32,000 nt of DNA from Candidatus Baldrarchaeum yapensis (GCA_016840465.1 JAEOSH010000016.1:8926-40925), one strand, 5' to 3'; counted from the stretch's first letter, positions 23,784 to 24,809 are shown. Numbers and translations: made by a program. The notes: generated by a model from the letters alone, not told the origin.

Positions 23784-24809
23784 TCAATAATACCATGTTT
23801 CAAATTGTTGCTCGTACAGTTGCCGAAGTTCCTTTTCTTGAGCGGCAGAACAGCTCTCGGCCAGAGGACAGTGCCCCTTACATTTTATATTAAGCTTAGC
23901 CGTCAATTCACATGCTTTTCTCTCACATGAGTCGCATCTTGGAGTTTCTCTGTATGAACAGCAATTTCTCCCAATATACCATAGGATGTCATCTAAGATC
24001 GTCGCTTTGATCCCAGAGGTTTCGGAAATTATTGCATAAGCTTCGCGTGCTTGCATTCTGAGTTCTATATCTATGTCTCTGGAAACCGGTATTCTTTCTC
24101 TTAGAACTCTTTTCAATTTCTCGTCCTTGATTTCAAGAATTCCGAATCTTATTGCTATTCGTGTCAAGTGGTTGTCCACCGGAACTCTGAGGTTTTGGGG
24201 ATCTTTTATCTTCCATAATCCCCTCCGTTCTAGAAATTTTATTAGCAAGAAAGCCTTTTTGGCAACCGGGTCTTCATATGCCGTAAATATGTGCAGATTT
24301 TCGACAATTTTCCATACGCTTCCTTCCGCCCTTTCAAATATCTTCATAGTGTCACCGTCGTAGAATCTCAGCAGTTTTATTCCAGCATCCCTTAAAAGGC
24401 TGGCACGCAGTTTTGGATCCTTAACTGTAGCAGGTTTTGGTTTGGAGACCGATAGCCACTCCGTTACTTCCTTTTCATCGATAGATGACATTCTTTCTGG
24501 CGAGAAAAACTGAGGGTCTTCATCCCACTTTAGCTTTGCAAGACGGTATAGAAGCAGAGAGCCCCTGTAAACTTCCCCATCTATCTCTCCTAAGAATACC
24601 GAGCCGGGTGGGTGTGTTCTGTGGTCTATGGCCACAATGAAAAAGAAGTAATTTGCTACATCCTTCGGGGGTGCGGATGGCGGAGGATAGAGTTTTGGAT
24701 CTTCAAAGTTATCGGGTTTGAAGTTTCTAAATTTCGATAGAAGATGGGCGAGGGCATTGCATTTTTCGTAATTTATACGTATACGTGTGTGCTTATCGTT
24801 ATGCATCAC
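23784..24809 (-). CDS. Qng1/DUF2419 (queuosine salvage)-like HhH-fold glycosylase with a Cys-rich C-terminus
   Basis: KKAFLL, PVDNHLTRIAIRFGIL, IELR and LDDILW parallel the recalled Qng1 motifs KRAQIL, ADYxxPQVLxxLG, EVEIR and LDYYLW. There are 8 Cys in 23850-23963. Confidence 0.65.
   Translation of the reverse strand: MMHNDKHTRIRINYEKCNALAHLLSKFRNFKPDNFEDPKLYPPPSAPPKDVANYFFFIVAIDHRTHPPGSVFLGEIDGEVYRGSLLLYRLAKLKWDEDPQFFSPERMSSIDEKEVTEWLSVSKPKPATVKDPKLRASLLRDAGIKLLRFYDGDTMKIFERAEGSVWKIVENLHIFTAYEDPVAKKAFLLIKFLERRGLWKIKDPQNLRVPVDNHLTRIAIRFGILEIKDEKLKRVLRERIPVSRDIDIELRMQAREAYAIISETSGIKATILDDILWYIGRNCCSYRETPRCDSCERKACELTAKLNIKCKGHCPLAESCSAAQEKELRQLYEQQFETWYY

Follow-up and report, generated by a model that had tools for sequence, protein, structure and literature searches.

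An archaeal Qng1-family protein, a predicted hydrolase, with a predicted repair-type iron-sulfur loop and an altered specificity pocket

The 32,000-nucleotide stretch of Candidatus Baldrarchaeum yapensis DNA analyzed here (GCA_016840465.1 JAEOSH010000016.1:8926-40925; the window) encodes on its minus strand, at 23784..24809, a 341-residue protein of the Qng1 (DUF2419/Q_salvage) fold and family, predicted to be a hydrolase. Family, fold, residue conservation and an all-or-none pattern of cysteines near the C-terminus are directly supported. The activity predicted for the protein, that of an N-glycosidase for mononucleotides, is judged likely to be correct. The more specific assignment favored here, an N-glycosidase with a salvage role that acts on free 7-deazaguanine nucleoside 5'-phosphate, is evenly poised between right and wrong. 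To our knowledge, Qng1 has been known only as a metal-free, queuosine-specific enzyme of eukaryotes and a few bacteria. A literature search for papers on APE_0812, the Aeropyrum pernix member of the family, or on iron-sulfur (Fe-S) or archaeal relatives of Qng1 returned none. An earlier sequence-only reading of the window had described the open reading frame (ORF) at 23784-24809 and a cysteine-rich tail. Both descriptions hold, the tail pattern being exact at residues 283-320.

Family assignment and fold

The Pfam family Q_salvage (PF10343) matches residues 78-252 (24054..24578, minus strand) with 34.9 bits against a cut-off of 25, and the match is recovered in a search of the whole genome with 32.3 bits. 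Scores for other glycosylase-related families fall under their respective thresholds, at 16 bits for HhH-GPD (cut-off 26.2) and 22.7 bits for AGOG (PF09171; cut-off 26.1; 23.1 bits in the genome search), and the DUF2400 score is likewise below its cut-off. Searching the Protein Data Bank (PDB) with the single target sequence gave no match; the profile search was what gave matches. Comparison by hhalign of the alignment of the target clade (A1) with that of a sister clade (A2) yields a probability of 99.94%, and the A2 profile in turn matches the Qng1 enzyme StQng1 at E 1e-19.

An AlphaFold (AF2) model built from a 40-sequence alignment has a predicted local distance difference test score (pLDDT) of 92.3 and a predicted template modeling score (pTM) of 0.91, with confidence lowest in an insert within the cysteine loop (pLDDT 62-80). 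Qng1 chains take each of the top ten places among the Foldseek matches of this model (E from 4e-11 to 5e-10, TM 0.70/0.74), and MutY and endonuclease III (EndoIII) rank after them, with E above 4e-3. In an all-against-all comparison with VIA-align, Qng1 superimposes with a Z of 29.1 and a root-mean-square deviation of 2.5 Å over 283-291 residues, spanning model residues 5-341. AGOG is the second-best fold, at Z 16.1, and EndoIII, NTHL1 and MutY score 12-14. The model contains elements specific to Qng1, namely the beta1/beta6 sheet, the beta2-beta3 hairpin, helix alpha12 and the C-terminal tail. With the queuosine-5'-monophosphate N-glycosylase Qng1/QNG1 (7U07, 7UK3, 7U91, 7UGK) the target shares a two-lobe helix-hairpin-helix (HhH) fold and equivalent catalytic, base-binding and ribose-binding residues. 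The likeness to Qng1 proposed by the sequence-only reading is borne out by the above-threshold Q_salvage score, the Foldseek ranking and the Z value.

That reading had also named AGOG/Ogg-type glycosylases as a counter-case, which fails because the best profile and fold matches are Qng1 instead. Membership in the AGOG/Ogg group was rejected on Pfam scores below cut-off and a fold Z far under that of Qng1. A weak Pfam match to AGOG (1XQO/1XQP) covers the part from the HhH motif to the D-x3-W motif, and AGOG likewise uses an Asp/Trp pair to read a guanine-type base. AGOG, however, has neither an Fe-S loop nor a tail ending in Tyr and acts on DNA, and the host has a separate Ogg2. EndoIII and MutY differ from the target in their LPGxG hairpin, which the target lacks, as well as in the subthreshold HhH-GPD score and the lower fold Z given above.

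Active site and proposed mechanism

Residues were mapped by profile alignment to Qng1 structures (HMMER to 7u07 and 7u5a; hhalign), by profile-profile alignment to the sister clade and from published roles; conservation of residues and cysteines was counted over 261 relatives unless stated otherwise. In StQng1, D231 is the catalytic Asp, K199 holds the ribose, I203 and W302 stack on the base, and D298 reads the guanine N1/N2 edge (PMC9881137). The catalytic Asp corresponds to D212, found in 255/261 relatives, in the segment P210-V-D212-N-H214 (24168..24182, minus strand; register from the 7u5a alignment). The helix K184-R196 (24222..24260, minus strand) carries K184 at the position of the ribose-binding Lys, in 259/261 relatives, and L188 at that of the I203 stacker, along with the basic residues K185, K191, R195 and R196, which are conserved and specific to the target clade. 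The motif D273-D274-x2-W277-x3-R281 (23967..23993, minus strand) provides the equivalents of D298 and W302 in D273 and W277, both invariant in A1.

The free carboxylate of the terminal residue of StQng1, Y323, is part of the active site and binds the ribose 3'-OH (PMC9881137). The C-terminal tail of the target, residues 321-341 (23787..23849, minus strand), ends in TWYY, with Y341 at the position of Y323; the VIA alignment to the model equates residues 340/341 with Qng1 322/341. No fewer than 257 of the 261 relatives stop exactly at this aligned pair of an aromatic residue and Tyr. By analogy with Qng1, an ending exactly on Tyr is what characterizes an enzyme that puts its free C-terminal carboxylate to use, and the terminal carboxylate of the target would then reach the active site.

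The mechanism suggested by these correspondences is scission of the N-glycosidic bond in a free guanine-type nucleoside 5'-phosphate. L188 and W277 would sandwich the base, D273 would read its N1/N2 edge, and K184 and the carboxylate of Y341 would hold the ribose, an arrangement that would exclude polymers. D212 would either attack C1' or stabilize an oxocarbenium ion. The base would most probably be a 7-deazaguanine, supplied as the preQ0 or archaeosine nucleotide by tRNA breakdown or uptake, and once freed it would re-enter the archaeosine pathway of TgtA and ArcS. In this scheme we infer the substrate, the binding of metal and the role of the tail.

The surroundings of the base have diverged from those of Qng1. 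The pocket for the cyclopentenediol of queuosine in StQng1 is formed by W48, Y93, W94, W299, P46 and H53; D69/N72/D206-D207 form a proton relay in which N72 is the general acid; and R80, Y232, K233 and Q306 bind the 5'-phosphate (PMC9881137). The queuosine pocket is not kept in the target, where F35 is among the aligned residues and Y93, W94 and W299 are replaced by S84 (Ala in most relatives), L85 (Asp in most) and D274. The relay residues D69/N72/D206 become V59/D62/K191, with K191-F192 opposite D206-D207, and N213/H214/R281 stand at three of the four phosphate-ligand positions (Y232/K233/Q306). D62 takes the position that N72, the general acid, has in StQng1, within the pocket that receives the 7-substituent of the base, and belongs to a D62-H63-R64 triad (24618..24626, minus strand) that is clade-specific, invariant in A1 and found as DHR in at least 142/261 relatives. 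A polar pocket of D62, H63, R64, K191 and D274 in place of the aromatic one would set a specificity for a different 7-substituent.

The cysteine loop

Of the nine cysteines in the protein, eight fall within 38 residues near the C-terminus, in the arrangement CC-x7-C-x2-C-x4-C-x9-C-x3-C-x5-C. This predicted Fe-S loop, residues 283-320 (23850..23963, minus strand), with four core and four extra cysteines, is an insertion that separates the last core helix from the tail, and it is one of the differences from Qng1, which is described in the literature as metal independent. The core cysteines C284, C292, C314 and C320 are kept in about 90% of relatives. The extra cysteines C283, C295, C300 and C310 are all present in 116/261 sequences and all absent from 55. 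Tail cysteine numbers cluster at 4 (49 sequences), 7 (27) and 8 (116); about 9% of relatives have none. Three of the extra cysteines, C295, C300 and C310, sit in an insert between the second and third core cysteines (residues 293-313; 23871..23933, minus strand). The insert is absent from four-cysteine members, as the alignment shows for P0114, P0117, P0067 and P0086.

The motif of the core cysteines, C-x6/7-C whose second Cys is preceded by Pro and then C-P-x4-C, resembles the loops of Nth-like enzymes encoded in the host genome itself. Weak EndoIII and ROS1 matches in the profile search fall on this part of the protein, and fold alignments to 2abk and 5kn9 pass through the loop, which thus occupies the same topological place. 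As in EndoIII, MutY and ROS1, four cysteines follow the last helices, the outer motifs are similar and the catalytic Asp comes after the HhH motif. The sequence-only reading had proposed a split EndoIII-type loop, and this agrees with the comparison: the outer halves match the Cys4 pattern (C-x7-C and C-P-x4-C), and the middle holds a cysteine-bearing insert, giving a spacing between core cysteines 2 and 3 of 21 residues (5-11 in minimal members) against 2 in the repair enzymes, which also lack the four extra cysteines.

These features suggest one putative [4Fe-4S] site, which C284, C292, C314 and C320 would form, homologous to the MutY/EndoIII loop; it would probably serve as a structural clamp from the last core helix to the catalytic C-terminal tail. 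Because the four extra cysteines and the insert come and go together, they suggest a second metal site, either a cluster or zinc, for which C283, C295, C300 and C310 would be the ligands. Each of the two sites would draw on the neighboring cysteines of the CC pair and also on the C-x3-C-P pair.

The loop is common in the family and is not peculiar to the target gene or clade, as seen from the homologues of a more canonical Q_salvage protein, all of which (57/57) carry a four-cysteine loop and end in TRYY; one of them, from Gordonia, bears the annotation "queuosine salvage family protein". The earlier statement that no such tail occurs in Qng1 accordingly stands for the two characterized enzymes and fails for the wider family. 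These Fe-S-loop Q_salvage proteins, from bacteria and archaea (clade C, which includes the Gordonia protein and one from the genome G164 of the host phylum), share with the target the four-cysteine loop, an equivalent C-terminal ending (TRYY) and a shortened HhH insert, and the hhalign comparison with them gives a probability of 99.94%. They differ in keeping the Qng1-like motifs N-F-x-[FY] and D-Y and in having only four cysteines, whereas the target clade has DHR, DNH and DD motifs and mostly eight cysteines.

Distribution and the archaeosine pathway

About 300-500 relatives are present in public data, nearly all of them archaeal and either unnamed or labeled "hypothetical"; the UniProt label of APE_0812 reads merely "Iron-sulfur cluster loop". 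In a scan of genomes, members turned up in Thermoprotei, Methanomethylicota/Culexarchaeia, Methanocellales and Korarchaeota as well as in several Asgard lineages. The gene occurs in 201/301 genomes sampled from the class to which a Pyrodictiaceae metagenome-assembled genome (G400) belongs and in 32/400 genomes of the phylum of the host. The branching of a 94-sequence tree agrees fairly well with taxonomy and places the window protein as a lone deep branch, sister to a Thermoproteota group, with a best non-self identity of 45-48%. Fused forms of 646-839 residues (P0127, P0158 and P0175) carry N-terminal membrane helices and a domain of about 300 residues that matches nothing in Pfam or the PDB, and two of these forms have lost all the cysteines. 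The N-terminal part of the forms of about 700 residues gave no Pfam, PDB or PADLOC match, and a resemblance to KaiC is no more than an impression. P0165, a Chloroflexota protein of clade B, has an N-terminal GIY-YIG nuclease domain, and P0224 is fused to a multi-pass membrane domain. A word-index search for longer fused forms returned none, those named here being known from another homologue search.

Both TgtA (C89:37780-39138; 575 bits) and ArcS (C62:20693-21808; 443 bits) are encoded, above curated cut-offs, in the host genome, which measures 2.27 Mb and is 96% complete. Profile searches of this 96% complete genome detected neither QueC nor QueF. Weak QueC matches were rejected as other PP-loop enzymes (NadE, LarE, ArgG, GuaA and WbuX-like), and a PTPS-like protein was rejected as QueD because it scores under the QueD cut-off. 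With TgtA and ArcS present and QueC and QueF undetected, the host seems to need preQ0 from outside. Having TgtA and lacking QueC is a common state in the host phylum, for example in families f9 and f31. Within that phylum, QueC is absent from 30 of 32 carriers of the gene and from 194 of the 368 genomes without it; one of the two carriers with QueC is G164, whose gene is of the sister clade. Among the G400-class genomes, 66 have both the gene and QueC, 135 the gene only, 75 QueC only and 25 neither, an odds ratio of 0.16 with kinship ignored. One bacterial protein encoded beside qng1 is reported to transport preQ0/preQ1, to the surprise of the authors (PMC11130926).

Gene neighborhoods of relatives

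Gene context was taken from 80 genome loci. No partner is universal across them, and neighbors are lineage-specific. In Thermoproteota, the gene for PBP2 (PolB1 binding protein 2, PF22511; a PolB1 subunit) lies within two genes in 34/80 loci, in three arrangements (e.g. L013:9415-9696). An unannotated gene of about 350 codons (e.g. L013:13639-14682) accompanies the PBP2 and Qng1-like genes in 24 loci. In the same lineage a dCTP-deaminase/dUTPase-like (DCD) gene is directly upstream in 10/80 loci, and a PNP/UDP phosphorylase gene is a neighbor in 12/80.

The sister-clade gene of G164 lies with queC and queD on a single 7-kb contig (C140; L091 512-7139). Its product has the four-cysteine loop. 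Also in the cluster are a queE-like radical-SAM gene, a gene for an unknown 221-residue protein, a D12 DNA methyltransferase gene and an overlapping NT5C-like 5'-nucleotidase gene with membrane segments. Possibly this is a Dpd-type island for 7-deazaguanine; the contig stops before a transglycosylase could appear.

Weighing the substrate

Several points count against a 7-deazaguanine nucleotide as the substrate. The residues that give Qng1 its queuosine specificity have not been kept, so that what connects the protein with 7-deazaguanine is its family membership together with genome patterns. The association between the gene and the absence of QueC is suggestive rather than proof, since it is one-directional, takes no account of kinship, and is accompanied by a near-universal TgtA and by large QueC-less lineages without the gene (0/22 in f9 and 0/86 in f31). 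TgtA occurs in 347/400 genomes; its distribution is thus non-discriminating and was rejected as evidence. Among named carriers, 2/10 have QueC, and there, as in 66 G400-class genomes, gene and QueC coexist. Some QueC-family matches, moreover, are possibly not preQ0 synthases (PMC13329287). The Thermoproteota neighborhoods (PBP2 in 34/80 loci, DCD in 10) have a DNA-precursor and replication flavor, and the tail position and cysteine pairing proposed above are read from sequence comparison. In addition, the cleft is possibly less closed than that of Qng1, because the beta4-beta5 hairpin in the HhH motif is nine residues shorter: StQng1 has nine extra residues before K199, and clades A and C are shorter there. 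Lastly, ArcTGT uses preQ0 and is not known to use the archaeosine base; if it does not, recycling of archaeosine (G+) would need a further step.

Qng1-type chemistry could also be directed at another guanine-derived mononucleotide, such as an oxidized, alkylated or otherwise modified (d)GMP, in a nucleotide-pool or turnover role with no connection to 7-deazaguanine. With neither the 7-substituent pocket of Qng1 nor its proton relay retained, specificity is open, and the D-x3-W motif that reads the base would suit any 2-amino-6-oxopurine. Such a role, which is considered unlikely, is consistent with the presence of the gene in two thirds of sampled G400-class genomes, as for a housekeeping enzyme, with its occurrence alongside QueC in many genomes and with the DCD-like (10 loci), PNP/UDP phosphorylase (12) and PBP2 (34) neighbors in Thermoproteota. 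Those neighbors, however, are lineage-specific and none is universal, and a role of this kind leaves unexplained both the frequent absence of QueC in carriers and the sister-clade gene in a queC/D/E cluster.

A further alternative keeps the substrate in nucleic acid: the protein would excise a guanine-type base, either modified or damaged, from DNA, for instance 7-deazaguanine-modified viral DNA, or from RNA, with the Fe-S loop placed on the backbone as in EndoIII and MutY. The cysteine loop does resemble the EndoIII/MutY loop in position and motif, as the EndoIII and ROS1 profile matches and the 2abk and 5kn9 fold alignments attest, but the fold as a whole is much nearer Qng1 than any DNA glycosylase (Z 29 versus 14-16). 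Five Qng1 elements are said to block the DNA cleft, namely the beta1/beta6 sheet, the beta2-beta3 and beta4-beta5 hairpins, alpha12 and the C-terminal tail (PMC9881137). The shortened beta4-beta5 hairpin would favor access by a polymer, yet the other four of the five are kept in the model. Binding of nucleic acid would also be in keeping with the many conserved basic residues (K185, K191, R195, R196 and R281), the fusion of one clade-B member to a GIY-YIG nuclease, the recurrence of PBP2 as a neighbor and the DCD-like gene upstream in 10 loci. Set against these are the lack of a GxG hairpin, there being no G-[LIVMF]-G anywhere in the target (the Nth-like proteins of the genome have LPGIG and NGIG), and a chain whose last residue is precisely the Tyr that binds the ribose 3'-OH through its carboxylate in Qng1. 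Some 9% of relatives lack all of the cysteines, membrane-anchored fusions exist, and PADLOC returned no defense matches. Already encoded in the host genome are an Ogg2 (259.8 bits), one Nth-like enzyme and a second HhH enzyme with such a loop, and an 8-oxoG DNA glycosylase role for the target is unlikely because of that Ogg2. Altogether, action on nucleic acid is regarded as quite improbable.

The sequence-only reading had offered two functions, a salvage hydrolase for archaeosine or preQ0 nucleosides and a DNA glycosylase for 7-deazaguanine-modified DNA. Of these, salvage fits better, in view of the cleft-blocking elements, the C-terminal Tyr, the missing GxG, the presence of TgtA and ArcS without QueC and the queC/D/E neighborhood of a sister-clade gene; the DNA glycosylase is the weaker proposal.

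The locus in the window

The stop codon of the Qng1-like gene is at 23784-23786. Its start is GTG at 24809 or ATG one codon on, at 24806, and an identical protein of 340 residues is already on record (P0002). The TGA of an upstream membrane-protein ORF abuts the start, which is also preceded by a G-rich stretch. This membrane protein is encoded on the minus strand at 24810-25563 by two ORFs (25009-25563 and 24810-25034) that overlap and differ in frame, with a weak CLN6 match that falls below the Pfam cut-off (23.6 bits versus 27). Because stop codon and start abut, the membrane-protein ORFs and the Qng1-like gene are probably co-transcribed.

On the opposite strand, 1.8 kb from the Qng1-like gene (26630-27857, plus strand), lies a carbon-nitrogen hydrolase gene of the nitrilase superfamily, followed directly by an ASCH-domain gene. 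PreQ0 is a nitrile, some ASCH proteins deacylate modified nucleosides, and a tie between this pair and the recycling of modified nucleosides is conceivable. On the other side, a NurA-HerA pair (a DNA end-resection nuclease and a helicase; 17782-20726, plus strand) stands upstream of an aldehyde dehydrogenase gene (21226-22908). A metallo-beta-lactamase-fold gene beside the target was rejected as a conserved partner, those near the closest relatives being of unrelated subfamilies.

Implications

The family described here is a widespread archaeal variant of Qng1, with a predicted repair-type Fe-S loop and a changed specificity pocket, and it is new. Salvage of preQ0 by archaea is accepted in the literature, and the enzymes for it are not known. 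The boldest form of the proposal is that this Fe-S, possibly two-metal, branch of Qng1 is the missing archaeal enzyme that frees preQ0 and archaeosine bases from nucleotides, letting archaea with TgtA and without QueC recycle or scavenge them, and that the loop shows nucleotide-salvage Qng1 to descend directly from Fe-S DNA-repair glycosylases. Taken as a whole, this is a tentative idea, possible but somewhat doubtful.

If the substrate is a 7-deazaguanine nucleotide, a recognized gap would be filled in the supply of archaeosine to archaea without preQ0 synthesis, and Qng1-type salvage would then take in one more tRNA modification and one more domain of life. The earlier description of the protein as bridging two families is reasonable as an evolutionary statement: whatever its substrate, the family clearly links the enzymes of base-excision repair with nucleotide salvage.

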